64,000 bases of DNA from Shigella phage KNP5, in the sequence record KX452698; one strand, 5' to 3'. A model generated the notes under the pieces. The model did no database searches and was not told where the DNA came from. It saw nothing but the letters and a program-made list of their open reading frames with translations. Of this stretch, positions 2,357 through 63,159 are shown piece after piece (the stretch's first letter is position 1; the number at the start of each line of letters is the position of its first letter). The translations under genes and the position numbers were made by a program.

Positions 2357-2360
2357 CAAC

Positions 2361-5963: not shown

Positions 5964-5998
5964 GAGCTATAATATCACAACTCTACCATAAAGTAAAC
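5964..5998 (-). promoter_or_regulatory. T4-type early promoter
   Basis: Minus-strand GTTTAC and TATTATAG -10 flanked by inverted repeat. Confidence 0.5.
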
Positions 5999-6000
5999 CA

Positions 6001-6479: not shown

Positions 6480-6667
6480 AAGTTTTCCATGGTAAAGGCA
6501 GTTTAGTTTTCTTTACTGTTAGTTCAACATCAGGATTCTTTTCTCTTAATTTAAGGCATTCCTCCCAAGCTCTGATTTCACTAGTGAATACACAAAATTG
6601 CCATTACTAGTACCAACTAAACCGCTATTTACAATAACAATAGACCAAGTTTCATGATGCCACGCCA

Positions 6668-7893
<1,226 letters not shown>

Positions 7894-7896
7894 TTA

Positions 7897-8127
7897 TTAT
7901 TTCTCAACCAATGATTGAATATAATCATGCAGGTCTTTAGATGCTTTACCCCACTTATTTTGATATTCATTTTTAAGATTAGCACGTGATTGAGCTAATA
8001 AAACATCATTAGTTGGAGGTAAAGATTCTAACCGTTGAATCTGGCGTCCGTAAATCATTGCAGCCATCTCGGATTCATAAATCAATCCTTTGAGATGTTC
8101 AAATTGGTGCCATGAAATCATTTGCAT
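7897..8127 (-). CDS. hypothetical protein, 76 aa
   Basis: ORF track. Confidence 0.45.
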   Translation of the reverse strand: MQMISWHQFEHLKGLIYESEMAAMIYGRQIQRLESLPPTNDVLLAQSRANLKNEYQNKWGKASKDLHDYIQSLVEK

Positions 8128-8417
8128 TTATCCTCTTTTAACTCTTGACGATAATAACATATCATAGTTTTCTGATCATGTACATATCGTTTTACATCAT
8201 TAAGCCAAATACGAAATTCCTGGGAATCTTCGAATGGCATACCGACCCAAGCTTTACCATCAATAACTTTAACTTGCCAAGATAGTTTAGCTTCATCGTA
8301 TGACTTTATTTGTACTGGCCAATTAGGATGAACTGTTTCTTTCTTTACTTCTAGAGGCTTTGTCGAACAACCAACTAGAAGACCAATAGATAATATTACT
8401 GCTGATAGTTTAATCAT
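8118..8417 (-). CDS. putative lipoprotein, 99 aa
   Basis: N-terminal signal with lipobox-like LLVGC. Confidence 0.5.
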   Translation of the reverse strand: MIKLSAVILSIGLLVGCSTKPLEVKKETVHPNWPVQIKSYDEAKLSWQVKVIDGKAWVGMPFEDSQEFRIWLNDVKRYVHDQKTMICYYRQELKEDKCK

Positions 8418-8767
8418 TTAGAAAGGTCCTGGATGTCTTCTGCGAACTTGTTGAAGGAGTTGTTGATTTGTTTTTCAACCAATCCTGGCTTATGAGCCAC
8501 CACATCCGCCTTCTTTGCGTCTTTGCGCAGTTTTTCATTTTCACGCTCAATAGCAGCAATTGCCTCACGATTTTTATTATTCATCGCATCAATATAATTA
8601 TACTGAATTCGCAAATTATTTAATGCTAAAGCGTTTTCATTGGCCGTTTTTGTAATTTCTACAACAGACGTTTCCAATCTTTCAATTTTATTTTTTAAAA
8701 TTAAAGAAGTTCCGCCCAATGCAATTACAATTAATAGCAAGCCTGCTGTTGTATTACTTAATTGCAT
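8414..8767 (-). CDS. membrane-anchored coiled-coil protein, 117 aa
   Basis: N-terminal hydrophobic helix followed by heptad-rich sequence. Confidence 0.5.
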   Translation of the reverse strand: MQLSNTTAGLLLIVIALGGTSLILKNKIERLETSVVEITKTANENALALNNLRIQYNYIDAMNNKNREAIAAIERENEKLRKDAKKADVVAHKPGLVEKQINNSFNKFAEDIQDLSK

Positions 8768-9261
8768 AAAGTTTTAATAACCTCTATAATATCGTCTTGA
8801 GAAAGACCGTTAATTAAAATATGATGTTCAGCAGGAGATTTAGAAATTTTAAAACATGCCTCAACATCTTCTGCCATATCCGATGCGCTACGATTTGGAT
8901 TACTAATTCCAAGACGATGTTTTCCCGTTAAAGGATTGACGATGATATAGCATTTACAGTTGTTAATATGAACATTAGGTTGAGTCTGATTAATGAACAC
9001 ATCACAATCATATTTCGCAAGCTGATTTTCTAAAAAGACTTTCATCTCCTCAACCGCATCAGGAAGCATATCACGGGCTTGCTCAAGACGACGATTTCGA
9101 TATTCTTTAATGGTCGTTTTCCGCTTTACTTGCTTAGCTAAATCTTTCTTAAGATCGGTGATATATCCAACTCGACGATTTCCTTTAAATACAGAAATCC
9201 CATCTGTAGTATCACCGTATGCTTCAACGACCATCTCAGTAGTAATAAGCTGCAAATCCAT
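8758..9261 (-). CDS. alc: Alc, inhibitor of host transcription elongation on cytosine DNA
   Basis: 167 aa from MDLQ; size and position between pseT.x genes and rnlA as in T4; sequence not independently recalled. Confidence 0.7.
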   Translation of the reverse strand: MDLQLITTEMVVEAYGDTTDGISVFKGNRRVGYITDLKKDLAKQVKRKTTIKEYRNRRLEQARDMLPDAVEEMKVFLENQLAKYDCDVFINQTQPNVHINNCKCYIIVNPLTGKHRLGISNPNRSASDMAEDVEACFKISKSPAEHHILINGLSQDDIIEVIKTLCN

Positions 9262-12110: not shown

Positions 12111-12161
12111 AAATTTTCCGCTTAGTTAATAGATAGTGACTCGTCCGTGAGTCAAATTATA

Positions 12162-14426
12162 TCATAATTTACAGGATGAACAATCTTCAGCTTTTGGAGT
12201 TTCTATTTCATAATCATCAGTACCAGAACCGTCACGGGTATTATGATAATAGAAATTTTTTCCGCCAAAATACCAAAAATATAAAAGGTCATCAATCATT
12301 ATTGACATTGGAACCTTTCCTTTTGGAAAAATCTGCGGGTCATAATATGTATTCGCTGAAGCTGATTGACACACCCATTTAAGCATAATAGCTACTTGCG
12401 TAAGATAAGGTTTATTACCTTTCTTAGCTAATTTCCACGTATAATCATACAGGTCTATGTTATGTTCAATATTGGGCACGACTTGATTAAAGGAACCCTC
12501 TTTTGATTCTTTAACAGAGACTGGTCCACGTGGAGGCTCGATACCGTTTGTACTGTTAGAAACTTGGGAAGATGACTCACATGGCATAAGTGCTGATAAT
12601 GTGCTATTACGGATGCCAAAGAGCTTAAGGTCTTCCCGCAGCGACGACCAGTCACAAACGTATTTTGGAGCTGCGATTTGGTCAATCTTTTTATTGTACC
12701 AGTCGATAGGTAATTCGCCTCGAGACCAACGAGTGTCTGAATAATATTCGCAAGGTCCTTTTTCTTTGGCGAGCTTAATGGATGCTTTAATGAGTCCATA
12801 CTGCAATCTCTCAAATAGTTCATGTGTTAAATCGTTAGCATCTTCATAAGAAGCAAAATTACTTGCCAGCCAAGCTGCATAGTTAGTAACACCTACGCCG
12901 AGATTTCGACGCTTTTTAGCTTTTTCTGCTTCAGGAACTGGATATCCTTGGTAATCCAAAAGATTATCAAGAGCGCGAACTTGAACTTCTGCTAATTCAT
13001 TAATTTTATCTTGGTCTTGCCAATCGAAGTTATCTAACACAAATGCAGATAACGTACACAATCCAATTTCAGCGTCAGGGCTATTCACATCATTTGTTGG
13101 AATAGCAATTTCACAGCACAAGTTACTCTGACGAATAGGTGCCTTTTCACGAATAAATGGAGTATAGTTATTCGTATTATCAATGAACTGCACATAAATC
13201 CTTGCTGTTCCTGAGCGTTCAGTCATGAGTAATTCAAACAGTTCACGGGCTTTAATACGCTTTTTACGAATATTAGGGTCTTTTTCTGCGGCTTCGTATA
13301 ATTCACGGAAACGGTCTTGGTCTTTAAAATAAGAATAATAAAGTTCGCCACCCATTTCATGTGGACTGAACAAAGTAATGTAATCATTCTTTCCGAATCG
13401 TTCCATCATCAAATCATTCAGCTGGACGCCATAATCCATATGACGGATACGGTTTTCTTCTACGCCTTTGTTATTTTTCAAAACGAGAAGATTTTCAACT
13501 TCCAAATGCCAAATAGGATAATAAGCAGTAGCAGCGCCGCCACGAATTCCACCCTGTGAGCATGATTTAACAGCAGTCTGAAAATGTTTCCAAAAAGGAA
13601 TAACACCAGTATGGCGTACTTCACCTGTGCCAATCTTAGAACCTTCGGCGCGAATCATACCAACGTTAATACCAATTCCAGCGCGTTTGGAGATATATTC
13701 AACAATTGAAGCGGAAGCCTTGTTGATAGACTTCAGCGAATCACCTGCTTCAATAACAACGCATGAACTAAACTGCCGAGTTGGAGTACGGCAACCAGCC
13801 ATAATAGGAGTTGGCAATGAAATCTGTCGAGTAGATACTGCTTCATAAAAACGAATAACATGTTTTAATCTATCAACAGGTTCATCTTGATGCAATGCCA
13901 TTCCAATAGTCATAAATGCAAACTGTGGAGTTTCATAAATTTGACCAGTGGTTTTATCTTTAACTAGATATTTTTCTTTTAATTGCATCGCCCCAGAATA
14001 AGTAAATTCCATATCCCGTTCGTGCTTAATTTTTGATTCTAAAAATGTAATTTCTTCTGTTGAATATTTTGACAACAATTCAGGGTCATATTTACCTTCA
14101 TTTACACAGTAAGAAATATGGTCAATAAATGAACGTGGTTCATACTGTCCATAAACATGCTTACGAAGAGCGAACATTAAACAGCGTGCAGCTACGTATT
14201 GATAATCAGGCTCTTCAACTGAAATAGAATTCGCAGCAGCCTTAATGACAATAGTCTGAATGTCATCAGTTGTCATTCCATCACGGAGATATGATTTAAT
14301 ATTTTCATATAATTCATAAGGATCTACAGATGTTCCTTCAGCTGCCCAAGATAAAACTTTAATAATTTTTTGCGGGTCAAAGCTCTGAGAAACACCACTA
14401 CTTTTGATAACATTAATTAATTGCAT
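12162..14426 (-). CDS. nrdA: ribonucleotide reductase large subunit
   Basis: 754 aa; class Ia RNR alpha with active-site NLCCEI region. Confidence 0.95.
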   Translation of the reverse strand: MQLINVIKSSGVSQSFDPQKIIKVLSWAAEGTSVDPYELYENIKSYLRDGMTTDDIQTIVIKAAANSISVEEPDYQYVAARCLMFALRKHVYGQYEPRSFIDHISYCVNEGKYDPELLSKYSTEEITFLESKIKHERDMEFTYSGAMQLKEKYLVKDKTTGQIYETPQFAFMTIGMALHQDEPVDRLKHVIRFYEAVSTRQISLPTPIMAGCRTPTRQFSSCVVIEAGDSLKSINKASASIVEYISKRAGIGINVGMIRAEGSKIGTGEVRHTGVIPFWKHFQTAVKSCSQGGIRGGAATAYYPIWHLEVENLLVLKNNKGVEENRIRHMDYGVQLNDLMMERFGKNDYITLFSPHEMGGELYYSYFKDQDRFRELYEAAEKDPNIRKKRIKARELFELLMTERSGTARIYVQFIDNTNNYTPFIREKAPIRQSNLCCEIAIPTNDVNSPDAEIGLCTLSAFVLDNFDWQDQDKINELAEVQVRALDNLLDYQGYPVPEAEKAKKRRNLGVGVTNYAAWLASNFASYEDANDLTHELFERLQYGLIKASIKLAKEKGPCEYYSDTRWSRGELPIDWYNKKIDQIAAPKYVCDWSSLREDLKLFGIRNSTLSALMPCESSSQVSNSTNGIEPPRGPVSVKESKEGSFNQVVPNIEHNIDLYDYTWKLAKKGNKPYLTQVAIMLKWVCQSASANTYYDPQIFPKGKVPMSIMIDDLLYFWYFGGKNFYYHNTRDGSGTDDYEIETPKAEDCSSCKL

Positions 14427-15844: not shown

Positions 15845-16873
<1,029 letters not shown>

Positions 16874-16883
16874 GTTATTTTCC

Positions 16884-17126
16884 TTAAACAGACTTTTTCA
16901 CAATTTTCCAATCAGCTTTAAACTGATCGACGTCAGAATGGTAAATCCAGAATCCTGCGCTTTCTCCATCTTCATAAAGAGGACATCCATCACATTCATC
17001 TTCCCATCCCATATCACGCAAAAGACGTTCAGCTTTTTCAATGAGTTCAGAATCTTTACCGATGATATTAAAATACCATTTACCTCTAACTTCTGAATCT
17101 TTAATGCTCTGACGTTGTAATCTCAT
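16884..17126 (-). CDS. hypothetical protein, 80 aa (frd.2-like)
   Basis: ORF track; early promoter upstream at about 17148-17181. Confidence 0.5.
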   Translation of the reverse strand: MRLQRQSIKDSEVRGKWYFNIIGKDSELIEKAERLLRDMGWEDECDGCPLYEDGESAGFWIYHSDVDQFKADWKIVKKSV

Positions 17127-17147
17127 TTTATTCCCCTTAGTTGATAG

Positions 17148-17181
17148 GGTAATAGTATCACACTACTACCCTACTGTAAAC
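17148..17181 (-). promoter_or_regulatory. T4-type early promoter
   Basis: Minus-strand GTTTAC then GTGTGATACTATTA. Confidence 0.5.
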
Positions 17182-17561
17182 TACTTTTTGAATGTTTTTC
17201 GCAAAAGTTCAATGATTTCGTCGACGTTATTTTCGTCTACAATGCAGTGAATTTTTGTTACGCCAGAAACCTTGTCTTCGATTTCATCTTCTTCAGAAGT
17301 CGGTTCTTTATATTCACGAAAACAATGAAATTCATCTTCGCAAATTTCTAAAAGTCTATCTTTAAGGTAAAAATGCTTTCCATTTGCGCATTCAATGTGT
17401 TTTACTGCTTTATATCCATTAGCGACGGAAACTTCTTTAACTTCAAACCATCCGCCATTATCTCGAATAGCTTTAACTATTGATGAATTGGAACGTGGGC
17501 TATAATTAATAAATGTATCAATAAGTCTTGGAACAAGTTCATACTTTTTGCCAATATACAT
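17181..17561 (-). CDS. hypothetical protein, 126 aa (frd.3-like)
   Basis: ORF track. Confidence 0.5.
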   Translation of the reverse strand: MYIGKKYELVPRLIDTFINYSPRSNSSIVKAIRDNGGWFEVKEVSVANGYKAVKHIECANGKHFYLKDRLLEICEDEFHCFREYKEPTSEEDEIEDKVSGVTKIHCIVDENNVDEIIELLRKTFKK

Positions 17562-17605
17562 TACGTTTTCCTCATTTTAACGGGGCTGTAATAGCCCCTT
17601 GATAA

Positions 17606-17836
17606 TTATTGTTCAATCAATCCCATGTAAAATTCTGCGTCTTCAGAATCCATGCCATCACAGTATTCATTAGCCATAAAGCGGGTGAGGTCTTCAAGAG
17701 GACCTTCAATGACAATAGAAAAATTGCAATAATTGGGATCATCGTGAATACTTGTGATACTAAGTTCAGGATAACGATTACGAATAATTTCTTCAATATA
17801 TTCAAAATCAACGATGTCAATATCAACTTTAGCCAT
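17606..17836 (-). CDS. hypothetical acidic protein, about 76 aa (start trimmed to MAKVDID)
   Basis: ORF track 17606..17857; internal ATG has better SD (AAGAGGAAA); occupies position downstream of gene 32. Confidence 0.45.
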
Positions 17837-18890: not shown

Positions 18891-18973
18891 TTTTATTTCC
18901 TTTTTAATTTAATTAACAGTTGGTGCTATGACGATGTATGACCTCATAGCTGGTCAGTGAGATAATTATAATC

Positions 18974-18981
18974 TATTTATA
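18974..18981 (-). promoter_or_regulatory. late promoter (TATAAATA on minus strand) upstream of gene 32
   Basis: Plus-strand TATTTATA between gene 59 stop and gene 32 start. Confidence 0.5.
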
Positions 18982-18989
18982 ATAAGCAA

Positions 18990-19643
18990 TTAATACTTGC
19001 AAGATTTCACAGTTTCAATGAAAACACTTTTAGCTTTCTGTGAATCAATATTTAAAATTTTTCTATAAGCCTTTAACTTTATAGAATAATTATTCCAGAC
19101 TAAATTATCAGTCTGTTCATCATGTTTATCGATTATATTTAAAAACGAATCAAGCAAGATAAACGTCTCAAACGAAATTATATTCGATTGAAGTAGTTTA
19201 AAAATATAACTTGATTGGACTTTTGGATTATACTCAAAGATTTCTTTAAAAGCAGAAACTTCAACTTTTTTACTAAAATAATAAATGTTGCGAATATCTT
19301 CTTCAAACTTAAATTTAATTTGCTTTAAGCGTCCGATATATTCACGATAAAACACAAGTGCATCAGCGTCAGAGATATCACCAATCCAAGCATCTTGGTT
19401 AGCAACCAGATTGCTTATAAAGATTAAAGCAAGTTCCTTTAATTTATATTTTTCTGATAACTTCTGGAAAAAATACTTATCCCTTCGCTTTTGATAAGCG
19501 GCATCAGACACCCGCATGCACCAATTATACTTAATTACATCATACTTTCCGTTCATATGTTGTTTTATCATTAAGTATAATTTATAAACTGATTTACCAT
19601 CAATATATCTTTCACCACCAGCAGGCATGCGGAGTTTAATCAT
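18990..19643 (-). CDS. 59: helicase loader gp59
   Basis: 217 aa; N-terminus MIKLRMPAGGERYIDGKSVYKLY as recalled for T4 gp59; position between 32 and 33. Confidence 0.85.
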   Translation of the reverse strand: MIKLRMPAGGERYIDGKSVYKLYLMIKQHMNGKYDVIKYNWCMRVSDAAYQKRRDKYFFQKLSEKYKLKELALIFISNLVANQDAWIGDISDADALVFYREYIGRLKQIKFKFEEDIRNIYYFSKKVEVSAFKEIFEYNPKVQSSYIFKLLQSNIISFETFILLDSFLNIIDKHDEQTDNLVWNNYSIKLKAYRKILNIDSQKAKSVFIETVKSCKY

Positions 19644-19978
19644 AGTAGAAAATCTAATGTATTAGTTTTTTCACAACGAACAACAGAAGGACGTAAAAGA
19701 TTTTCGTCGATAGCTTCTGACTGAATTTTTTCAATTATACCCGAAGGAATAAATTTAGCAAATTGAGTTTCAGGAATAGAATTTTCTTCTAAGAATGCTG
19801 TTGTAGCTTCAAGATAACTCATTCCAAACTCTTCTACCATTTTTTCAATGATAAATCCATTTTCTTGACGATCAAGAAGCTTTGCAATTTCATCCTTTTC
19901 TTTCTTAATTGAAAGTTCTTTTTCTGAAAGACCGGTCTCATCGACCGGACGAATATCATTTAGAGAAAACTGTGTCAT
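19640..19978 (-). CDS. 33: late transcription co-activator gp33
   Basis: Start trimmed to MTQFSLNDI; 112 aa; position between 59 and dsbA. Confidence 0.75.
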   Translation of the reverse strand: MTQFSLNDIRPVDETGLSEKELSIKKEKDEIAKLLDRQENGFIIEKMVEEFGMSYLEATTAFLEENSIPETQFAKFIPSGIIEKIQSEAIDENLLRPSVVRCEKTNTLDFLL

Positions 19979-26979: not shown

Positions 26980-31102
<4,123 letters not shown>

Positions 31103-34645: not shown

Positions 34646-34795
34646 TTACTGCATGACTGTGATAACTGTCATGATAACACGTTGAATTCCGAACGCAAGA
34701 AGACCTCCTGCTACGGCAGGAACAACACCTAAACCCGCTAGTAAAATGCTACCAGATACTAATGCAGCGCTTGTAATACCTATGAATGGACTCAT
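34646..34795 (-). CDS. small hydrophobic membrane peptide, 49 aa
   Basis: Manual translation; ATGA overlap with gene 52 stop; followed by hairpin terminator. Confidence 0.35.
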   Translation of the reverse strand: MSPFIGITSAALVSGSILLAGLGVVPAVAGGLLAFGIQRVIMTVITVMQ

Positions 34796-36120
34796 TTGAT
34801 TTCCTCTAAATCTTTAGTGTATTCTGTAACTACATCAGTAGTTTTCCAATATTCGTTTTCTTCTTTTTTAGCTTTAGCTTCTTCAGCAAGTTTCTTTGCT
34901 TCGTCGGAAGTCATATGAAAAATGTTCATTCCAACTAGTTTATCAACATAAGAAGAATACATATCAATTTTAGAAAGTTCTTCGGTCAGTTCTTTACGAG
35001 TTTTACCCTGCACAACAATTTCACCCGAAATTACTTTCTTAATGAAATGTGCCTTGGCAAAGGCTAAACGAAATGCTGATTCAGTTTCTTTGATTTTGTT
35101 ATCAATTCGTTTTTGGACATAAGTTTTACGAACTTCAACGAAGTCTTTGATTAAATCAACTACGTTATCGTAAACTTGCAGTTTTCCTTTCTCATTAATA
35201 ACGGTAATATTCTGGGAACGCCGCTCAATCAACCCGAAGTCTTTCATAATTTTTGCGTGTCGTTCTTCTTCATTATCGCTCAAAGAGTATTCTTTACGGA
35301 ATTTAACTTTGAAGCCAAAACCGTGCTCACCGCAAGCATCATCCCACGTAATGAAGCCTTTATCTTCAAGCGGGTCTAAGATTTTACTCACGTAAGTTTC
35401 ACGATCATACTTATACGGAATCTCAGTGATATGCATTTGAGTTCGTGAAGTAAACTTGTACGTTCCACGAATTTCATATTGACCGTCAATTTCAACGACT
35501 TCACCGCGAAATTCTGGGAATTCTACCTTCGGTTTAGTTACTTTCTTTCCTTGAAGAGCTTGCAATACAGCTTTCTTGACAGAAGAAACGCTATGAGGAA
35601 GAATGTAAGTTGCATAACCAGTTGCAATACCGGAAACACCGTTAAGAAGAACAGTAGGAATAATAGGCAAATAGAAAGCAGGCGGAATGTGTTCTTTATC
35701 TTGATGTACCGGAGCATATTCAGTATCTTTATATACGTTATAGAAATTTTTACTTACACGAGCAAAAATATAACGACTTGCCGCTGCTTTTTGAACGGTA
35801 CGAGAACCAAAGTTTCCTTGACCATCTAACAAAGGAAAGTTATTATTCCAAGTGTTAGCCATCAAAGCGCCCGCGTCTTGTGCAGAGTTTTCACCATGAT
35901 GATATCCAAGGTCCGCTACACCACCTGCAATAGAAGCGAGTTTGTGAAACTTATCTTTATTTCCTCGTGCCAAATCAAGAGCTCGAGCAATAACAAATCG
36001 TTGAACTGGCTTAAATCCATCAATCATATTTGGGATAGCACGATTTTCAACCGTGTACATAGCATAAGCCAATGCTTCATTATCAATGATACTTTTTAAA
36101 TCGCGATTATTCAGTTGCAT
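34792..36120 (-). CDS. 52: DNA topoisomerase II medium subunit gp52
   Basis: 442 aa; GyrA-like cleavage-religation domain; matches T4 gp52 size. Confidence 0.95.
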   Translation of the reverse strand: MQLNNRDLKSIIDNEALAYAMYTVENRAIPNMIDGFKPVQRFVIARALDLARGNKDKFHKLASIAGGVADLGYHHGENSAQDAGALMANTWNNNFPLLDGQGNFGSRTVQKAAASRYIFARVSKNFYNVYKDTEYAPVHQDKEHIPPAFYLPIIPTVLLNGVSGIATGYATYILPHSVSSVKKAVLQALQGKKVTKPKVEFPEFRGEVVEIDGQYEIRGTYKFTSRTQMHITEIPYKYDRETYVSKILDPLEDKGFITWDDACGEHGFGFKVKFRKEYSLSDNEEERHAKIMKDFGLIERRSQNITVINEKGKLQVYDNVVDLIKDFVEVRKTYVQKRIDNKIKETESAFRLAFAKAHFIKKVISGEIVVQGKTRKELTEELSKIDMYSSYVDKLVGMNIFHMTSDEAKKLAEEAKAKKEENEYWKTTDVVTEYTKDLEEIK

Positions 36121-40446: not shown

Positions 40447-42624
40447 TTAGGCCGCAAGGGCCTTCATAGTTTTAGCGATTTGGGAAACTTCATCATCGCT
40501 TAAAGAGTTGCGATAACCGATGAAGTCGGAAACAATACGGAATTTCTTGGTAAACTCAGCAACCATTTTATCACTGTTTTTTGAAGCATTGTTTGATAAT
40601 ACATCAAAAAGATTAGTTACTGTCCAGATGTCATGACCGATGGTATCTTTTCCACAGTTGAAATATACACCCTGTAATGAACTAACCATATTAGCGAGTC
40701 GTGTATATTCTTCGGAAACTTCATCTACACTGAAGTACTTCATCATAAAATCTAACTCAGGATACTTGATAATTTTATCAATATATCGTTTAGCTGAACT
40801 TGAATAACCTACATACTTATCATAATCTACAGCATCAAAAGCATCTACATATAAATCACGCAGAGTTTCAAAAATACATTGGCACTGACCAAGTTCTTTT
40901 ACCTTTTTCTGTAAAAGTGGACGAATAACATAAAATTCATTAATGCCAATAAGATTAGCCATACGAGTCAAAATACTCGTAGATGGATGACAAAGCGATG
41001 TAGTGCCATCCATAGAGAAAATATCAGAACGATGCATGTATGCTACATAACCAGTAATTTCATCTGCTTCTGACGTAAGTGTAAACAGTTCCTCTTTTTC
41101 CCAGCGCCCGTCTTTAATTTCAAACTTAAACGCAGTAGCAGCTTTAGGACGAGGAGCTTTACTTTTAACTGCCTTCGGAATATAACTTTTAACTAAAGCT
41201 TCAATTTCTGACAAATAATGAATGTTAACTTCATCACTTTCAAACATTGCCATAATATCAGGAAGTAAATCAATCTGCGATTCTACTTCCGGATTAATAA
41301 ACAGAAGACGCTCATTATGATGAATATTCAAAGTGTTATTAAATTCACTATCATCTAACGCATGCGCTAATCCACGGACAATATTAACACGATTTTTAAT
41401 ATTATCAATAACGATATTGATTTTTGTTGTATTAATACCAAACAAACGATAACTTGATGCAACGGCTGAAGTTTCATGGCTTTGCTTAATACGTTTCAGC
41501 CGAGGGTCAAGATTTACTTCATACACAACTCCTGCATTGCATAACTTACTGTCAGGTTCAAACATGCTTTGCATCTTCTTATATGACAGATTTTTAGTCG
41601 TAAATTTGACTGAATTACTAATCATATAATCTCGAGCAGAATATCCCATCTTCATCAATTCACGGTATGTATGACGAGGAGATGTAGATTCTTTAAATCG
41701 TTTTACATCTTCATTGAATGCTTTCTCACTAAGCTCTTTAACACGCTCAATAATATTTTTACGAGTACGATCATCTAGTGAAAGAGCTTCGCGTGATGGA
41801 GCAATATCCAGTGAACCCATTGGAAACTTAATGTAATTCACTTCATTGCGGATGCTTAACCAGTTACGGTCTCTAATAACACCATCGATAGGATAAACAA
41901 TACCGCCATAGATAGCATACAATCCACCACGATCTGGCCAGTATCTTTCTGGATTTACGCCGTAATAGTCATCAAAATCCGGAAAATAATCAATTTCGCG
42001 GTCAAGACCATTAATGATAGCTAAATCTTTGAATGGTCGCATGATATAAGAAACTTCATAAGCAAAGTTTCTAAAGTCTTTTTCTTCAACTGGAACTACG
42101 ATTTCAATACCAGTTTTATCATCTGGACCCATTTCTTTTACGAATGTAGGTTTAATTTGCGGACCATCACCATCCATGTAAGCTACATAACCGCGAATTT
42201 CACCTTTATGGTATGAAGTGATACTAAACGTATCAGTATAGCTAAACGGAGATTTAGAACCTAAACCAAATCCGCCAATGAAATCGTTAGATTCAGCCTT
42301 AGATGAACTGAAGTATGAATTATACAGCCCAGGAGAATTATCATCACCCTGAATATCAAAATCGCTCATACCTGGACCAAAATCTCGACAAACAAATCGC
42401 GGATCTAATCGTCCTGGAACTTGAATGATAAATTTTTCAGGATTTCCATTAAGAGCATGGGCATCAATCATGTTGGTAATCAATTCACGGACAACTGCGC
42501 GAATCTTGTTTGTATACAAATCAGATGACAGAATTTTAAATACTTTAGGAGATGCTGTGATGCTAAATGCCTTTGATTTAGAACCATTACCAAGAATTGT
42601 TTCTTTTTCAGTGGTGATAATCAT
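40447..42624 (-). CDS. rIIA: rIIA
   Basis: 725 aa; size and position as T4 rIIA; GHKL-ATPase-like N-terminal region. Confidence 0.93.
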
Positions 42625-42634
42625 AATTTCCTCA

Positions 42635-42838
42635 TTAATTCATATTGCGTTTAATAACTTCAGCAACTTCTAGTAGTTCATCTTTAGTTGCGGTGTCGGA
42701 TTGAATTTTATCTCTAATATTCTTAAAGCGGTTTTTAAACTCTTCAGCTTCTCCCATATCGAAAAAGCGTTGGATGATTCTATATTCTCGATGAACTGCT
42801 TTATCAAAAAGTTCTAAATTTACTTTATATGATTTCAT
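42635..42838 (-). CDS. hypothetical protein, 67 aa (rIIA.1-like)
   Basis: ORF track; canonical early promoter immediately upstream. Confidence 0.5.
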
Positions 42839-42863
42839 TTCAATATCCTCATTTGCCCAATTA

Positions 42864-42892
42864 ATTATACCACATCCTTGTGGTAAAGTAAA
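42864..42892 (-). promoter_or_regulatory. T4-type early promoter for rIIA.1/rIIA
   Basis: Minus-strand GTTTAC directly after gene 39 stop, spacer, TGTGGTATAAT. Confidence 0.6.
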
Positions 42893-44710
42893 CTACTGGC
42901 TCATCCATTCTTTACGAAGGTCAGCATTATCCCCCATGAGCATTTCAAAAAGCTCTTTCCAGTTCTCAGGAAGTTTAACAACATCATATACCGGATTTTG
43001 AATCATCTCACGATATTCAGATTTTTCCAAAGAGCCAAGTCCCTTAATATAACGGATGCTATGTTTAGGTAGAGCATCTTTGGCACTCTCATATTCAGCG
43101 ACTGTATAAAACCATTCTTGTTTTTTACCGACCTGAGCGATGATTACGGGAGTTTTGACGAAGCGAATTCTTCCTTGTTCAAACAGTTCCGGCCAATTAC
43201 TAAAAAATCCGAGCAGAGAAGGATAAATGCTTCCTAGACCATCGTGGTCAGCATCAGTCATAATAGCAATATTATGATAATTCAAGTTTTCAGCTTTTTC
43301 ACCAAGAACTAATCCAGTGATTGCGCAAATATCAAACAGTTCTTTGTTTTTAAGCATATCAGCATATGACATACCCCAACTGTTGAGAACTTTACCACGC
43401 AATGGATAACCACCGTGAAGTTCTTTATCACGAACATCAATAAGATATCCGATAGCAGAATCACCCTCAGTCAAGAAAAGAGTAGTATCAGCATCTTTAC
43501 CACAAAGATTCGCTTTAATATGTTTATGAACCTTAGCTTTAGAAGCCTTTTTAGCTGCTTTAGTTTCTGCTGCCTTTTCTGCCGCTAATTTACGAGCCAA
43601 GGCAGCTTCAATAATTGGCATTAAAATTGCTTCATTGTTTAAAATAGCGCGTGAAATCTTTTTAGCATCAAGCTGAATATGACTACGAATTTCACCAAAT
43701 GGAGAAGTCAAACGCTCTTTAGTTTGAGAATCAAATCGCATGTTTTTCATATCACGAACAAACATAACGATAGTCAAGCATTCTTTAACACGTGCTTTAG
43801 TTACATCAATTTTGAACTTGCGTTTAATTTGTGGAATAAGGTCTTCACAAATATCATCCATAACGCAGTCAATGTGATGGCCGCCATTCTTAGTATGAAT
43901 GTTATTGACATATGTTAATTGACGAAAACCATCCGGTGAACGACCAACCGCAATAGAACAATTTTCCTGTTCTTGAACTATAGCATGCTCATCATATTGG
44001 CGTGCGTATTTCTTAAAATTACCCTGAACCTTTTTACCGTTAAAGGTAAATTGAATATCAGGATAAACTACTGCAAGTGTCTGGAGACGATCCAGTGTAA
44101 TGTCAAGATAAACTTGAGATAGCTCATTAGTTTCAAATGACATAAAATCAGGAATGAAAGTAACACGAGTTCCTTTCCATTTTCCAGGAATATCTTCCCA
44201 TGATTTATTTTCCATGCCATTTGAACAACGAACTACAATATTATTTTGACCATCGCCAGTTTCACCAACAAACATTACAGAAAAAATGTTAGTTAAACTA
44301 GAACCAACACCGTTCATACCGCCAGTGACGCGTTCTTTATCATCACCGAAGTTACCACCTGCTTTTGGAATAGTCCAGGCGGCAACAGGACCAGGAATTT
44401 CTTCGCCAGTAGGTGTTTTAACCATCGCTTGTGGAATACCACGACCGTTATCTTCAACAGTTACTTGATTGTTTTTGATAGTAACATTAATTTTATTCGC
44501 GAATTTAAACTTAGTACGAATACCTTCATCTACTGAGTTATCGATAATTTCATCAATAAGCTTAACAAGACCAGGTACATACTGAACACTTTCCCATTTA
44601 CCAAACAGAAAGCGCTCATGCATTTCATTAGCAGAAGAGCCAATATACATGCCGCTACGCTTTTTGATATGTTCAATATCGCTCAGAATTTTAATTTCAT
44701 TCTTAATCAT
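42893..44710 (-). CDS. 39: DNA topoisomerase II large subunit, uninterrupted (T4 39+60 equivalent)
   Basis: 605 aa from MIKNEIKIL; GyrB-like ATPase and TOPRIM domains in one ORF. Confidence 0.92.
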   Translation of the reverse strand: MIKNEIKILSDIEHIKKRSGMYIGSSANEMHERFLFGKWESVQYVPGLVKLIDEIIDNSVDEGIRTKFKFANKINVTIKNNQVTVEDNGRGIPQAMVKTPTGEEIPGPVAAWTIPKAGGNFGDDKERVTGGMNGVGSSLTNIFSVMFVGETGDGQNNIVVRCSNGMENKSWEDIPGKWKGTRVTFIPDFMSFETNELSQVYLDITLDRLQTLAVVYPDIQFTFNGKKVQGNFKKYARQYDEHAIVQEQENCSIAVGRSPDGFRQLTYVNNIHTKNGGHHIDCVMDDICEDLIPQIKRKFKIDVTKARVKECLTIVMFVRDMKNMRFDSQTKERLTSPFGEIRSHIQLDAKKISRAILNNEAILMPIIEAALARKLAAEKAAETKAAKKASKAKVHKHIKANLCGKDADTTLFLTEGDSAIGYLIDVRDKELHGGYPLRGKVLNSWGMSYADMLKNKELFDICAITGLVLGEKAENLNYHNIAIMTDADHDGLGSIYPSLLGFFSNWPELFEQGRIRFVKTPVIIAQVGKKQEWFYTVAEYESAKDALPKHSIRYIKGLGSLEKSEYREMIQNPVYDVVKLPENWKELFEMLMGDNADLRKEWMSQ

Positions 44711-44737
44711 CACTTATCCTCGTTTGGTTTCGGGAAT

Positions 44738-44762
44738 ATTATACTCCGGTAATCATAAAGCT
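44738..44762 (-). promoter_or_regulatory. putative middle promoter upstream of gene 39
   Basis: Minus-strand AGCTTTA (MotA-box-like) about 13 nt upstream of TATAAT. Confidence 0.4.
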
Positions 44763-44779
44763 AAAGGCCCGAAGGCCTT

Positions 44780-45052
44780 TTATTTAAAACGGATAGTCGA
44801 ATCCTTGAAGAATAGACCAGAACATACGGTTCCTTCTACTTTCTGCCCGGTAGGTCCAATAGCACGAAATCCAGTATGTTGGAAATCATTTTCAGAGCAA
44901 CCGAACCAATTGTATCCAGTGATTTCAATATTAGTAAACCCACTTGAAGACAAAACTTTGGTTGCATTATCAGCGTCAGTACATCCTACTAAAGATACTG
45001 CTAATACTAATGCCGCGATAGAACGATTAACATATTTCATAATTTCACTCAA
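44780..45052 (-). CDS. putative lipoprotein, 90 aa (39.1-like)
   Basis: Signal peptide with lipobox LVGC. Confidence 0.5.
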   Translation of the reverse strand: MSEIMKYVNRSIAALVLAVSLVGCTDADNATKVLSSSGFTNIEITGYNWFGCSENDFQHTGFRAIGPTGQKVEGTVCSGLFFKDSTIRFK

Positions 45053-45422
45053 ATTTAATGGCTTGAAGGAGACTAATAATTCTCAAGCGGCTTCTTTCAT
45101 CTTTAACCGTAAAAGAAAGAGGGTCGCCAGATTTCATAGTGATAGTGCATTCAAAACTAAAATCTTCAGGAACTTCTTCGAAGAAGTCAAATTCTTCATC
45201 ATATATTAGAACATTACTCTGAAAACTGTGAAGAATTTTTCCGTCATTTCCAGATGCTGTACTAATCATTGTAACATTATTACCTTTCATATCTTCAACG
45301 ATAAATTCGCTTGTAGATATTACGGCATTAATAGAACCATTCCTATAAATAGAAGAAAGCAGATATTTCTTTTCTTCACCTTCACGAACACGATATTTCT
45401 TACCGATTTTAAACATAATCAC
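45045..45422 (-). CDS. hypothetical protein, 125 aa
   Basis: ORF track (GTG-extended start possible). Confidence 0.5.
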   Translation of the reverse strand: MIMFKIGKKYRVREGEEKKYLLSSIYRNGSINAVISTSEFIVEDMKGNNVTMISTASGNDGKILHSFQSNVLIYDEEFDFFEEVPEDFSFECTITMKSGDPLSFTVKDERSRLRIISLLQAIKFE

Positions 45423-46979: not shown

Positions 46980-47519
46980 TTAATTCAAAATAGCTACCAC
47001 TGCACTACGAGGTACTACACTAAAATCACCTGCATGAACAACGTTCAGAAGTTCAACACCATCTTCAATCCACTGGTCTGTTACCCAACCACAGACCGAA
47101 ATAAATGGGGTCTTGATAGCTACAGCACGAGTTAGAAGGTCAGTAGGATCGCATTCTTGGAAGAGGATAAGCTCTGCTTCAAAGACTATAGTTTTAATTA
47201 CTTCATCATTATCTAAGCGTTGTGCTCGAATCACATAAGCTTTATTCTTATCATACCAATTACTTTTTGAAAAACTTTTAACCACAAACTCGCCTTCACC
47301 CAAAACACTGGTCAATGCTTTATAACCCAAACTTAGTTCAGTAGTTTTAATTTCAGTTTCAACCAGTTTGTAGGTTTTGCCGATTTCAATAGCGGTAGTC
47401 ATAGTAGGTTCCTTAATTTCCAGTGGTTTAACAGGGCATACATAAGTGCTTACAACATCAAAATCAATCAGTTTAGCTACCGGATTTGGTGTGTATTCAG
47501 GATTATAATTAAATTTCAT
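46980..47519 (-). CDS. hypothetical protein, 179 aa, paralog of 46406..46903
   Basis: Shared C-terminal motif TDQW(I/V)EDGV(E/K)L.N(A/V)V. Confidence 0.5.
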   Translation of the reverse strand: MKFNYNPEYTPNPVAKLIDFDVVSTYVCPVKPLEIKEPTMTTAIEIGKTYKLVETEIKTTELSLGYKALTSVLGEGEFVVKSFSKSNWYDKNKAYVIRAQRLDNDEVIKTIVFEAELILFQECDPTDLLTRAVAIKTPFISVCGWVTDQWIEDGVELLNVVHAGDFSVVPRSAVVAILN

Positions 47520-47521
47520 AA

Positions 47522-48022
47522 TTATCTCATTTCAATAAAATCTATAAGTTCAGCATGGGATTTACGGAACATTACTTGATGTCCGCCAATGATAACTTGG
47601 TCATCTGGCACTTCGTATACAGCAAGATAAAATCCTTTAGAAGATAATTCTTCACGCTCTTCTCGTGTGAACCATCTCATCATATCATATTCACTAGCGA
47701 AAGCAAAATGATAAAGAGCTATAAACCATCCTGGAATATAGTGATCTACGCCTACATAATCTTTCTTGAACTTAGTATTAATTACTGTATTAGCGTTTTT
47801 AACTAATAGTTTATCTTCGTGTGGTAAAGGAATTCTTTTATTATTATCGCTATGATGCATAAAATTAGGTCTGTCATAACCTACGTGTAATAACCACTCT
47901 TCGCTCCATGAATCTATTATACTCCTGTATGGCGTTATTTGAACACAAAGATTTCGACGTATTGTTATAGCATCTTCATAATTAAGAATACTAAAAGATG
48001 ATTCAACACGATAAATTTTCAT
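47522..48022 (-). CDS. hypothetical protein, about 166 aa (start trimmed)
   Basis: Track start 48061 lies inside promoter -10; internal ATG with GAGGA SD. Confidence 0.5.
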   Translation of the reverse strand: MKIYRVESSFSILNYEDAITIRRNLCVQITPYRSIIDSWSEEWLLHVGYDRPNFMHHSDNNKRIPLPHEDKLLVKNANTVINTKFKKDYVGVDHYIPGWFIALYHFAFASEYDMMRWFTREEREELSSKGFYLAVYEVPDDQVIIGGHQVMFRKSHAELIDFIEMR

Positions 48023-55699: not shown

Positions 55700-56218
55700 T
55701 CAATAACCTCGGTCTTGACGAGCGAAGTTTTCAGCATTTTTCAGATAATAAAGTTTAAAGATTTCTTCAGCAGTAAGACCGAGACCTTGGAACATGTTCA
55801 GAACGAAATGAAGAATATCAATCATTTCGAATTTAATTTCCAACTGGTCTTGTGGAGACAAATCAGTAATTAAAGTTTCACGGCGTTCACCATGCTGTGA
55901 CTTCCAAGGTTTCCATACAGCAGATGCATCTTTTTCACCATTACTCATACCACCAAGAGAAGTCAGTAGTTCGCGGAATTCATCATCAATATAATCTTTC
56001 TGATTACGCAACCAATCAACAACTTCACCTGCAGTAGCCAAATCATCAGGATGACGGTTATATTCAGGTTTATCTTTAGCTAAACGAACCTGTAGAGATT
56101 TCTGCATATCAAGCATAACCTGCAGCGGGTCTTTTTCATCACCGAGAATATCCCAGTATTCATTTTGAGCTTTATCAGCGCCTTCAATCAGTTGTGAACA
56201 TTCATTAAAGTATGCCAT
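55700..56218 (-). CDS. 56: dCTP pyrophosphatase gp56 (MazG-like)
   Basis: Start trimmed to MAYFNECSQLIEG; about 172 aa. Confidence 0.85.
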   Translation of the reverse strand: MAYFNECSQLIEGADKAQNEYWDILGDEKDPLQVMLDMQKSLQVRLAKDKPEYNRHPDDLATAGEVVDWLRNQKDYIDDEFRELLTSLGGMSNGEKDASAVWKPWKSQHGERRETLITDLSPQDQLEIKFEMIDILHFVLNMFQGLGLTAEEIFKLYYLKNAENFARQDRGY

Positions 56219-56289
56219 TATTTTTCCTTTCAATTCATGGGTTAGTAGATTAATTATACAATAAATATATAAAGCAATAAGGAGGACAT

Positions 56290-56490
56290 ATGGTACAAAA
56301 ATTAATGGCACTTGTTAATGCCATAAAAGGTAATAAGAAACGTATAGCTTTTACTATTTCTGCTATGGTAGGAATTTTACTCTGGAATTTTGTTTTATCG
56401 CCAATTGCTATTGCTCATGGCGTTAATATTCCAGTAATTACTCTTGATACATTCGTAGATTTAGCATTTGCTTTAGTTGGGTTAATTTAA
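56290..56490 (+). CDS. small membrane protein, 66 aa, on the opposite strand between 56 and 61
   Basis: ATG with strong SD AAGGAGG; two hydrophobic segments; ends tail-to-tail with gene 61. Confidence 0.45.
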   Translation: MVQKLMALVNAIKGNKKRIAFTISAMVGILLWNFVLSPIAIAHGVNIPVITLDTFVDLAFALVGLI

Positions 56491-57515
56491 ATCTTAGCAT
56501 ATTTAGATAGCCGCATTTTAGCCATCAACCCTTGAGCAATATTATTTTTCATATATTCCATAATTTGTTTAGGGGTTGCACCTTCCTTTCTAATCATATC
56601 ATTAACATCTTTTGATTTCCAGGGGGATTTATCCCAAAACATAACCCTTTCTCCTGCATCAACCAATTTAGTCATTCGTTTAATAGTGTCAGGGTGACGA
56701 GGTTCATTATCTAAAACCCATACACGTCTATCTTTAAATGGAACAATTTCTAGGTCTAATTGACCACCCGTAATAGCTATACCATTTTCAATAAAAAGTG
56801 AATCTATAGGTCCTTCTAGAACATATACATCACCATCTTTGACTCGTTCGACTCCATATATTTTTGTTGCCTCAGGATAAGCTTTGATGGTGATATATTT
56901 TTGAGGAGCATCTTTCTTTAGTGCACGTCCTTGAAAAGACTCAGCTTTTCCGTTAGCATTATAAATTGGAATAACAAGACGAGGCTCAGGTATTTCCTTT
57001 TTATATGTTCCTGGCGCTATACTATTAACTAATTTAGGCCATTCGGTTGTAAACCAAAGATATTTCCATTTATCCTTTGGAATACAACGAGCTTTTACAT
57101 ATTTTATAATTGGATGGTCTTCCGCCAATTTATCTAATCTGATGCATGACGGAAGAGATTTAATTATTTTCTTCTCAGGTTGTTTAGGAAGTTCTTTAGG
57201 TTTTTCTACTGGACGACTTTTACCTTTTTCTTTTCTTATTTCAAAGATATACTCACGATATAAATCAGGTTCAAACTCCTTTAAATATATTCCGATTGGT
57301 GCATGATAGTTGCAGTTATAACAATGAATATTTCCTTCATTATTATCACCATAATACCATCCACGGGCTTTATTTTGGTCGGTTTTTGAATCTCCACAAA
57401 CAGGACATCTAAACCGTAATTTAAAAGTTGAACTATTATTTACTTGTGCAAATTTAGGTAAATGAGCCAATGCACGGTATGCAAACTCATTATCAATCCA
57501 AGGTATTGATGACAT
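56487..57515 (-). CDS. 61: DNA primase gp61
   Basis: 342 aa; N-terminal zinc finger CPVCGD...CYNC; TOPRIM region. Confidence 0.92.
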   Translation of the reverse strand: MSSIPWIDNEFAYRALAHLPKFAQVNNSSTFKLRFRCPVCGDSKTDQNKARGWYYGDNNEGNIHCYNCNYHAPIGIYLKEFEPDLYREYIFEIRKEKGKSRPVEKPKELPKQPEKKIIKSLPSCIRLDKLAEDHPIIKYVKARCIPKDKWKYLWFTTEWPKLVNSIAPGTYKKEIPEPRLVIPIYNANGKAESFQGRALKKDAPQKYITIKAYPEATKIYGVERVKDGDVYVLEGPIDSLFIENGIAITGGQLDLEIVPFKDRRVWVLDNEPRHPDTIKRMTKLVDAGERVMFWDKSPWKSKDVNDMIRKEGATPKQIMEYMKNNIAQGLMAKMRLSKYAKI

Positions 57516-60346: not shown

Positions 60347-61502
60347 TTAACTGATCTAGGTCAGTTTCTAAATCAGCTGCTGATTTACTTTTACTTTCTG
60401 GAGATTTAAATTTTTCAACCTTTGAGTTAATCAATTCATCAACTTCAGCTTCAACAATTTCATTACTATCAATAGCACCTAACTGATAAGCACGTTTAAT
60501 AGCATCTCGGAATGGTTGATGCTTAAATAAAGGACCCCAGAATGTAGTGCAGTTGGTATCTTTTGCACGCCAAGATTTTTCTTCGCGAATCATCTCACCG
60601 GTTTCTTCGTCAAGAAATTCACGAGCATACCAGCCATTTTTAGGTTTTACCACAAATCCTAATTCAAGAGCCATATCTAACAATCCAGAATAAGGATCGA
60701 TACCACCGTCAAATTTAACATCAATAAAGAATTTACTTTTTTCTTTAACGGTACGAGATTTTTCTACATTTAGAACAAATTGATACCCCTGAAGATCAGA
60801 ACCATCTTTAATCTGGCGCTTACCGATAATGAATACAGTATCAGCCGAATACATTACGCCTGTACCACCTGTCATCACGGTTTTACTAAACATTTCAATT
60901 GTTTCAATTGTATGGTTAACCGCAACACATGGAATGTTTTTAATACTAAAATAAGGAGTAACAATACGGAATAATGACTTCAGTGATTTAGCACGAGTCA
61001 TATCTGCCACAGATTTTTCATTCAAGGCATCTTCCGTTTCTTTCTTAGAAGCCATATTACCGATTGAGTCGATGAATACAATAACTTTTTCACCACGCTC
61101 AATAGCTTCAAGCTGATTCACCATATCAATTTTCAGCTGTTCAACTGACTGGATTGGTGTATGAATTACTCGTTCCGGGTCAACTCCCATGGATCGCAAA
61201 TAAGCTGGAGTAATACCAAATTCGCTATCATAAAATAGACAAACCGCGTCAGGATATTTGTTCAAATACGCCGCAACCATAGTCAAAGACATATTTGATT
61301 TAAAGTGTTTAGAAGGACCTGCAAAAATGGTTAAACCAGACTGCATACCACCATCAATCGCACCAGAAATAGCGATATTAAGCATTGGAATTTTTGTACG
61401 GATTACATCCTTTTCATTAAAGAATTTAGATGTAGTCAGTTCAGCAGTCATTTTAGAAGTGGAAGCTTTAATCAAACGGGATTTTAAATCTGCAATAGAC
61501 AT
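60321..61502 (-). CDS. uvsX: UvsX recombinase (RecA-like)
   Basis: 393 aa; sequence closely matches T4 UvsX as recalled. Confidence 0.95.
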   Translation of the reverse strand: MSIADLKSRLIKASTSKMTAELTTSKFFNEKDVIRTKIPMLNIAISGAIDGGMQSGLTIFAGPSKHFKSNMSLTMVAAYLNKYPDAVCLFYDSEFGITPAYLRSMGVDPERVIHTPIQSVEQLKIDMVNQLEAIERGEKVIVFIDSIGNMASKKETEDALNEKSVADMTRAKSLKSLFRIVTPYFSIKNIPCVAVNHTIETIEMFSKTVMTGGTGVMYSADTVFIIGKRQIKDGSDLQGYQFVLNVEKSRTVKEKSKFFIDVKFDGGIDPYSGLLDMALELGFVVKPKNGWYAREFLDEETGEMIREEKSWRAKDTNCTTFWGPLFKHQPFRDAIKRAYQLGAIDSNEIVEAEVDELINSKVEKFKSPESKSKSAADLETDLDQLSDMEEFNE

Positions 61503-61579
61503 TCATTTTTTCCATAGGCAACATTATATTTTCCTCACTGGTTAAAGATAGAGTAATTATAACACAATAAATTTAGGCA

Positions 61580-62428
61580 TTAATCAACTGCTATTGGATG
61601 AATAGCATTAAACTTATGAAACGCTTCTGATTTTTCTTTGCGTGAAACACACATGCGAAGAACCTTTAATGGCTCGTCTTCTTCACCCAACGATTTTCTC
61701 TTTTCAATATTCGATGTTTTCCAACGAGCTTGCTCTGGAAACTCTCTATTGATTTGCTCAAGAGCTCTATTATGTTTTGAATTACTACGAATTGAACTAC
61801 ATCCGCCAGGAGCCTGTGCTTTTCCAGACACAACCAGATATTTGAACAAGGCCAAATGCGGATAACCTTGATTAATTAAATTGAGAAATGCATACATATC
61901 TTCGCATAAATCAATTTTTCCATACCCAATTTGTTCTGTTGTAAGTTTCCCGAGGTCATACCAAGTATTCGTGAATCCATATGAATTTTCACGATAATTA
62001 CCCCAAGATGAAGTAATTTTAAAAATAGGTAGACGAGCATGACCGTGATAATACCCGCAATCCATGGCATCTTCAACGTATTGAATCAATTCATAGAACT
62101 GTTCACGAGTTAACTGATTAATTTTATCTACGCAGCGACGATCATCTTTCTTTCGCATTGAACTCATACGAATAGTAGTATCATCATCAATCATCCAGAT
62201 TCGTTGACCTGCATACATATCAGTAATTGCTTTACGAGTACCAGCAATTCCATTAACATCATCAGGAATAGTTATAATTTTAGCTCTAGACCCATAAGCG
62301 TCATAATAAGCTTTTTCTTCATGTTCACGTACTACAATATGAGGTTCATAATCAGTCGGAAACATATCAAGGGCAGAAACTGCCCCTACGCGTTGATAGC
62401 TTGGAATTACAAATTGAATCATTTCCAC
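61580..62428 (-). CDS. GT-A family glycosyltransferase at the beta-gt locus (probable beta-glucosyl-HMC alpha-glucosyltransferase-type)
   Basis: 282 aa; DxD-type motif IDDDTT; located between uvsX and 42 where T4 has 351 aa beta-gt. Confidence 0.6.
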   Translation of the reverse strand: MEMIQFVIPSYQRVGAVSALDMFPTDYEPHIVVREHEEKAYYDAYGSRAKIITIPDDVNGIAGTRKAITDMYAGQRIWMIDDDTTIRMSSMRKKDDRRCVDKINQLTREQFYELIQYVEDAMDCGYYHGHARLPIFKITSSWGNYRENSYGFTNTWYDLGKLTTEQIGYGKIDLCEDMYAFLNLINQGYPHLALFKYLVVSGKAQAPGGCSSIRSNSKHNRALEQINREFPEQARWKTSNIEKRKSLGEEDEPLKVLRMCVSRKEKSEAFHKFNAIHPIAVD

Positions 62429-63159
62429 TCACCACTATAATCTTTTTTCGCAATATGGGTTTCGCCAGTTTTCCACCAATGGTCAACCAAATAAAAATGA
62501 CGGGAATACACATGAAGGCTTCCGACATTCCATATAATAGAACCTGCTTTATACTGACGAGTTGAATCACCTGCATTCAAATCAGATACTAATTTATCTA
62601 GTACGTATTTTTGCCATGCATAATCATTACGGAATCCGAAGACCACGTCATTTGAACGCATGCTTACTACTGCATTGACTTTCTTATCACGAATCAGGTA
62701 CTGTACTGTATTCGTACACATGAAATCTGACATACCATCTTTATTGTAGTCAAACTGCATGGATGGACGAGTATAAATCATGATACCGCGTCGAGAATCA
62801 GGATTTTGACCAAGTTCAGCTAAACACATATCATATTGGGCATAGTTATCTTCTGACCAGATGGCCCAACCATAATTCGAATTAATTTCGCCTTTAGAAG
62901 ATGCTACCTGCTGCCAAATCTTCGGTGTTTCACCCGGAATATCTTTAACAAACAAACTTTTAGATTTATACCATTCAAGTTCACGCTGAATGTATTCATC
63001 ATTAAGAGCGCCAAAAATAAACGGTTCATCTGCTACAAATGATGCGCCAATAATTTCAATAGTTTTAACGCCAGTTTTATCAACTACGAAATCTTTTTCC
63101 TTTAATGCAAGCCCCAAATGAAGACGGATTTCTTCAACTGTCATAGAGTCACTAATCAT
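62419..63159 (-). CDS. 42: dCMP hydroxymethylase gp42
   Basis: 246 aa; thymidylate-synthase-like fold; size and position. Confidence 0.92.
   Translation of the reverse strand: MISDSMTVEEIRLHLGLALKEKDFVVDKTGVKTIEIIGASFVADEPFIFGALNDEYIQRELEWYKSKSLFVKDIPGETPKIWQQVASSKGEINSNYGWAIWSEDNYAQYDMCLAELGQNPDSRRGIMIYTRPSMQFDYNKDGMSDFMCTNTVQYLIRDKKVNAVVSMRSNDVVFGFRNDYAWQKYVLDKLVSDLNAGDSTRQYKAGSIIWNVGSLHVYSRHFYLVDHWWKTGETHIAKKDYSGEWK

Follow-up and report, generated by a model that had tools for sequence, protein, structure and literature searches.

The topoisomerase II large-subunit gene of Shigella phage KNP5 is a single uninterrupted gene 39 of the T2/T6 type

Introduction

The large subunit of the type II DNA topoisomerase of bacteriophage T4 is divided between two genes, 39 and 60, and its coding sequence contains a 50-nt gap that ribosomes bypass. 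The corresponding locus of Shigella phage KNP5 (sequence record KX452698) raises the question of whether this phage shares the split gene and its translational bypass or carries the subunit in one piece and, if the latter, whether the gene was ever split. The T4 arrangement has been traced to a mobile element. Manning & Atkins describe a MobA element of 1097-1106 nt that split T4's ancestral large-subunit gene and deletes approximately 64 nt of the parental gene, with a 5' boundary at residues 466-473 and a 3' boundary just past D490/G491, extended by 9 nt in the T4 clade (bioRxiv 10.1101/2022.08.31.505936). In the same preprint Bonocora et al. 2011 are cited for the findings that MobA nicks the T2 gene inside the deleted region and invades it by homing during mixed infections, and that the 50-nt insert and its bypass shield the invaded genome from MobA. 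The Topo II enzymes of T2 and T6 have two subunits, the T4 split falls in the Toprim domain, and T4 is the only known three-subunit case (PMC11461880). The unsplit gene 39 is already known; it is the well-documented form of T2 and T6 and has been described as the parental state (Manning & Atkins 2022; Bonocora 2011 as cited there; Nat Commun 2024).

Here we describe the locus within a 64,000-nt stretch of the KNP5 genome (the window, to which all KNP5 positions refer). The gene is almost certainly the uninvaded, one-piece form of Tequatrovirus gene 39, encoding a 605-residue GyrB-like subunit of a type IIA topoisomerase.

Results and Discussion

Organisation of gene 39

Gene 39 occupies the minus strand as a single frame of 605 codons, beginning with the ATG at 44710 and ending with the TAG at 42893-42895, with no internal stops (Table 1). 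In the list of open reading frames it appears as 42893..44713 (-), 606 residues long, from a GTG one codon 5' of this ATG. The 605-residue product, which runs from MIKNEIKIL to EWMSQ, has the same start as gp39 of T4, T2 and T6. By our own estimate, an open frame of 606 codons at approximately 36-38% GC lies far beyond chance. A preliminary description of the locus had reported an uninterrupted 605-residue ORF running straight into rIIA.1 and rIIA. Its coordinates are exact and the strand, which it omitted, is minus; the order of the genes is likewise as it said, with a spacer of 54 nt between gene 39 and rIIA.1, followed by rIIA. A promoter scan found no sigma-70-type site directly 5' of gene 39.

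Table 1. Features of the gene 39 locus and related genes in the KNP5 window
Feature	Position	Strand	Basis
Gene 39, uninterrupted; DNA topoisomerase II large (GyrB-like) subunit, 605 aa + TAG	42893..44710	-	ORF, phrog_543, PDB 8YLU_C, T2/T6 collinearity
GHKL ATPase domain core, aa 47-149	44264..44572	-	PF02518, E=2e-9, 38.3 bits (cut-off 26.4)
GyrB transducer (DNA_gyraseB) domain, aa 250-384	43559..43963	-	PF00204, E=1.4e-13, 51.1 bits (cut-off 27)
Toprim domain, aa 410-492	43235..43483	-	PF01751, E=0.0047, 17.5 bits, below cut-off 23.1
TOPRIM_C / C-terminal tail, aa 519-604	42899..43156	-	PF16898, E=4.2e-7, 30.7 bits (cut-off 29)
64-nt 'parental' segment, where T4 has the 1117-nt MobA element instead; probable MobA recognition/nick region inside	43229..43292	-	blastn boundaries, alignment, T2/T6 comparison
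Site equivalent to T4 bypass: Gly491 GGT followed directly by Leu492 CTA	43235..43240	-	Codon table, alignment
Putative upstream control region of gene 39	44714..44779	-	Sequence comparison, identical to T4
GGCC-UUCG-GGCC hairpin and T run after the 39.1 stop	44766-44777	-	By eye; identical to T4
TATAAT box upstream of gene 39	44738-44743	-	By eye; identical to T4
Shine-Dalgarno GAGGA of gene 39	44717-44721	-	Identical to T4
Promoter-like site TTTACT-17-TATAAT, 10/12 matches, TG extension, in the gene 39/rIIA.1 spacer	42864..42892	-	Promoter scan; identical in T4 and T2
rIIA.1, 67 aa, immediate downstream gene	42635..42838	-	PF24210 T4_RIIA1, E=3e-33
rIIA, 725 aa, next after rIIA.1	40447-42624		
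Gene 52, GyrA-like topoisomerase partner, 442 aa, intact	34792..36120	-	PF00521, E=9.1e-77; phrog_551, E=5e-221; collinear with T4 gene 52
T2/T6-type gp38 adhesin, 263 aa	30311-31102	+	phrog_2056
Beta-glucosyl-HMC-alpha-glucosyltransferase, 282 aa, where T4 has segA and beta-gt	61580-62428	-	phrog_842, E=1.9e-89

Domains, catalytic residues and partner subunit

Over its whole length (residues 1-605) the protein matches the PHROGs family phrog_543, 'DNA topoisomerase II large subunit' (E=2.4e-295). The best match among solved structures is the T6 gp39 chain 8YLU_C (residues 1-605, 1385 bits) and the second is an engineered T4 gp39-gp60 fusion (8YO3_C); in the same search, the alignments with human, yeast and bacterial type IIA enzymes (Topo II/ParE) are continuous over the T4 junction. 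Because the Pfam Toprim match scores below its curated cut-off, this domain is assigned from the conserved E...DxD residues and from identity with the T6 structure. The glutamate E415 (in the motif TEGDSA) and the aspartates D486-x-D488-x-D490 (in DADHDG) are on one polypeptide in KNP5, whereas T4 divides them, with the Toprim glutamate in gp39 and the DxD motif in gp60. In T6 Topo II, E415, D486 and D488 are metal site residues (PMC11461880). All the residues named for that enzyme (E415, D486, D488, D490, R438, K440 and K556) are present in KNP5 gp39, which by sequence is a B-type (GyrB/ParE-like) subunit of a type IIA topoisomerase, in the uninterrupted T-even form.

The two-subunit T6 enzyme, made up of gp39 and gp52, has been solved by cryo-EM and its relaxation activity has been measured (PMC11461880). 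KNP5 gp39 is 99.7% identical to the gp39 assayed in that work, and this near-identity to a characterised enzyme suggests that it too would have ATP-dependent relaxation/decatenation activity. By homology with T2 and T6, two copies of gp39 and two of gp52 would assemble into an A2B2 enzyme, which would use ATP to pass one DNA duplex through a transient double-strand break in another.

Comparison with T2, T6 and KNP1

The gene 39 arrangement had been assigned to the T2/T6 type, and the comparison with these two phages bears this out in detail. In both T2 (AP018813.1) and T6 (AP018814.1) gene 39 is an 1818-nt coding sequence at 2447-4264 of the record, directly 5' of rIIA.1, and neither has any insertion or deletion relative to KNP5. 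The T2 product (BBF63163.1, 605 residues) is identical at 604 of 605 positions, the exception being F70 of KNP5, which is Leu in T2, while T6 gp39 is identical at 603 of 605, with D173 and Q526 of KNP5 replaced by Thr and His. At the DNA level, T2 differs at 82 nucleotides, nearly all of them synonymous (95.5% identity), and T6 at 71 (96.1% identity). So many nucleotide differences, with only one and two amino acid changes respectively, indicate strong purifying selection on a working protein. The neighbouring genes are also shared with T2, with 39.1 upstream and rIIA.1 and rIIA downstream; the 54-nt spacer before rIIA.1 is identical in sequence to those of T2 and T4 and equal in length to that of T6. 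Structures of T6 gp39 are available as PDB entries 8YLU, 8YO1, 8YO5, 8YO7, 8YOD, 8YON and 9IMJ.

The 64-nt segment that corresponds to the T4 insertion site is identical to T2 at 63 positions and is clearly unlike the diverged copy carried within the T4 element. The one base that differs is synonymous, with His489 encoded by CAC in KNP5 (position 43244) and by CAT in both T2 and T6. Escherichia phage KNP1 (KX452694.1, an unannotated record) is 100% identical to KNP5 over the 2501 nt compared (window 42600-45100).

The junction of the T4 genes 39 and 60

For comparison with the split form we used positions 1-9000 of the T4 reference (NC_000866) and translated gene 39 and both exons of gene 60. 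Residues 1-473 of the KNP5 protein align with T4 gp39 1-473 (466 of 473 identical, 99%) and residues 472-605 with T4 gp60 27-160 (128 of 134 identical, 96%), in agreement with the proposal that the single ORF spans what in T4 is gene 39 plus gene 60. On the DNA, blastn gives two blocks, one pairing window 45042-43293 with T4 5661-3911 and the other window 43228-40436 with T4 2793-1. Between these blocks lie 64 nt in KNP5 (43229-43292) but 1117 nt in T4 (2794-3910). The T4-only sequence comprises a 43-residue gp39 tail, the mobA pseudogene, 60.1, the gp60 leader (approximately 26 unique residues), the diverged copy of the target region and the 50-nt gap. In the collinear parts the two phages share the enzyme and its flanking genes at approximately 96% DNA identity (71 differences in 1754 nt). 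The boundaries, Ala473 and Ser494 (G491 plus 9 nt), 64 nt apart, reproduce the published description of the element exactly, and the unsplit junction thus correctly repeats an observation already in the literature.

None of the bypass signals of T4 is found at the KNP5 junction. Around its take-off site T4 reads GAT GGA / UAG CCU UCG GGC UAU ... UUG GA / UUA GGU UCU, and the 50-nt stretch, annotated as a 'non-coding translational bypass region', has no counterpart in KNP5, which at this position reads GAT GGT CTA GGA AGC (Asp490 Gly491 Leu492 Gly493 Ser494). By codon table and alignment, the matched take-off and landing GGA codons, the UAG and the 50-nt coding gap are all absent from the junction. 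The KNP5 protein has no counterpart of the C-terminal tail of T4 gp39 (residues 474-516) or of the gp60 leader (residues 1-26), which holds the nascent-peptide signal, and between the two halves of the topoisomerase, where the ORF is continuous, there is neither a homing endonuclease gene (HNH) nor a remnant of one. A search of the whole 64-kb window for the T4 take-off hairpin and stop sequence, allowing up to 3 mismatches, gave no match. The predicted RNA fold of the KNP5 junction is no better than that of shuffled sequences (z = -0.24), with no cryptic hairpin resembling the take-off structure; the same test recovered the 10-bp UUCG take-off stem-loop from the T4 control. The preliminary description, which had claimed that both a mobA-type insertion and the 50-nt bypass element were lacking, had also proposed alignments to T4 gp39 and gp60 and to T2 gp39. 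These bear out the claim, with the GGA hop codons and the hairpin absent as it expected.

At one place in the aligned proteins, immediately before the conserved QTK loop, residues 326-328 of T4 gp39 are L-I-R, while KNP5, T2 and T6 all have F-D-S. The T4 reading has the look of a short compensated frameshift, or of an old error in the sequencing of that record.

Distribution of the uninterrupted gene

The 2.5-kb region around the gene matches 537 phage records. With a 136-nt query spanning the 64-nt segment, and coverage of at least 80%, the contiguous junction was found in 450 phage records. The 1117-nt element of T4 was found in 43, including T4 isolates, RB55, RB59, HY01, HY03 and vB_EcoM_112; the records of RB55, RB59 and HY01 have a 'homing endonuclease' annotated at this place. 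At the protein level, a 141-residue query over the junction matched 2012 phage records, and in 1928 of them the match was a single contiguous one. These contiguous records include distant T4-like phages, among them Klebsiella phages, Acinetobacter phage Ac42, where the gene is labelled '60plus39', and RB16, where it is '39plus60'. The unsplit gene is the majority state and is phylogenetically widespread, no peculiarity of T2 and T6, as would be expected for the ancestral form. The label 'ancestral', which the arrangement had been given at the outset, agrees both with this distribution and with the literature (bioRxiv 10.1101/2022.08.31.505936; PMC11461880).

Origin of the one-piece gene

The history of the locus begins with a one-piece gene such as that of KNP5. 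In T4, a MobA homing-endonuclease element of approximately 1.1 kb inserted into the Toprim-coding region, splitting the gene into 39 and 60, bringing with it the 50-nt coding gap bypassed by ribosomes, and giving rise to the three-subunit enzyme. KNP5 has neither the MobA element nor the coding gap, and its gene 39 is therefore translated conventionally, without recoding. We found nothing that contradicts the reading of this gene as uninvaded.

The history could also have been longer, with a gene that was once split by the MobA element becoming joined again after loss of the endonuclease and the bypass. According to Manning & Atkins, a clade of Campylobacter phages lost the element progressively and underwent secondary fusion of the gene, and Aeromonas phages show 'hit and run' (bioRxiv 10.1101/2022.08.31.505936). 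Re-fused or decayed cases, however, keep C- and N-terminal extensions derived from the element, and in KNP5 there is no trace of the gp39 tail or the gp60 leader. Furthermore, a re-fused gene is hard to reconcile with the complete lack of indels relative to T2 and T6, with a 64-nt segment that matches T2 at 63 of 64 positions, unlike the HomR of T4, or with flanks that are about equally distant from T4, T2 and T6 (approximately 92-100% per 100-nt bin). We regard secondary re-fusion as very unlikely. T4-donor co-conversion tracts, as a mark of earlier invasion and loss, were sought beside the junction in 100-nt bins and none was found. A past invasion may also have been erased without trace, if recombination with an uninvaded phage cleanly replaced the locus.

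A third possibility, that the intact ORF is a decaying or non-functional copy and that topoisomerase function is supplied from elsewhere, is barely conceivable. T4 topoisomerase mutants are viable, with delayed DNA synthesis, and this is the only point raised in its favour; the KNP5 sequence itself gave no support for it. With 82 nucleotide differences from T2 but only one amino acid change, the pattern of substitutions rules out a dead gene. In addition, the protein has every catalytic residue identified in T6 Topo II (PMC11461880), gene 52 for the partner subunit is intact, and the upstream expression signals are identical to those of T4. An artefact of assembly or sequencing, in which an insert of approximately 1.1 kb and a 50-nt gap were collapsed or missed, has no evidence in its support and can be dismissed as having a negligible chance, because hundreds of records have the same junction (the 450 contiguous phage records include T2 and T6), and the reading frame is intact and its protein under purifying selection.

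With gene 39 taken as the uninvaded form, KNP5 could, through its intact 64-nt segment, receive the element by MobA homing during mixed infection. Were the one base that distinguishes the CAC codon for His489 to matter for recognition by MobA, the unsplit allele of this lineage could be naturally resistant instead of being a naive target, but we think this very improbable; by the published account, a much more diverged copy of the target in T4 is still nicked when the 50-nt insert is lacking. A phage carrying the unsplit allele would suit MobA homing experiments as an uninvaded recipient.

The main value of these results is correct annotation, and they matter little beyond that. A single CDS is the right annotation for the gene, with the product name 'DNA topoisomerase II large subunit (gp39, T2/T6-type, uninterrupted)', and no ribosomal-bypass or split-gene feature should be transferred to it from the T4 reference. 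Together with the gp38 adhesin and the glucosyltransferase gene, the unsplit gene 39 helps to type the genome as non-T4-like within Tequatrovirus.

Other differences from T4 in the window

The whole window was compared with the corresponding T4 DNA by blastn. KNP5 is without the nrdB intron and I-TevIII (600 nt), nrdB.1 and mobE (700 nt), the td intron and I-TevI (1017 nt), and the segG (623 nt), segF (692 nt) and segA genes of T4. The window junctions that lack T4 inserts are at 11443/11446, 12111-12165, 15295/15296, 18954-18988, 55702-55736 and 61491-62436. As all the other intron and homing-endonuclease inserts that T4 has in this stretch are absent, the absence of the MobA element belongs to a scarcity of homing endonucleases that extends across the genome.

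Other T4 genes are also missing or replaced. The T4 dam region (T4 16826-17724, 899 nt) has a counterpart of only 20 nt (window 56259-56278), and no dam gene is present between gene 56 (55700-56311) and gene 61 (56487-57515). T4 61.2 (T4 19142-19756, 615 nt) is cleanly absent at 57693/57694, with no bases in its place. At 26980-31102 (+), the distal part of gp37 and a 263-residue gp38 adhesin (phrog_2056/phrog_1121) replace the gp37 tip and gp38 chaperone of T4. The gp38 adhesin, the glucosyltransferase (Table 1) and the absent inserts are independent markers, and as such agree with the 'T2/T6-type' label.

In T2 and T6 as well as in KNP5, gene 39.1, upstream of gene 39 (window 44780-45040, minus strand), is an 86-residue ORF that carries a lipoprotein-like signal (MKYVNRSIAALVLAVSLVGC...); it belongs to phrog_902, of unknown function. 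In the T4 reference (T4 5393-5680), by contrast, the ORF is broken by one inserted nucleotide and an altered lipobox (LINS in place of LVGC), and the 39.1 annotated there has 65 residues. Between 39.1 and 39.2 is a 371-nt insert that is absent from T4, filled by a 125-residue ORF (45045-45422, minus strand; phrog_622) that weakly resembles the N-terminal portion of goF-family proteins (phrog_13003, E=7e-7); T6 and T2 also have ORFs there. At the position of T4 motB.1 is a 179-residue ORF (46980-47519, minus strand; phrog_2333), the C-terminal 55 or so residues of which are MotB-like (phrog_1671, E=1.3e-16), and within this region window 47093-47533 does not align with T4 DNA. Finally, the cd-pseT region has two inserts relative to T4 that are particular to the window, one of 519 nt with a 175-residue ORF (5411-5938, minus strand) and one of 313 nt with a 106-residue ORF (7573-7893, minus strand).
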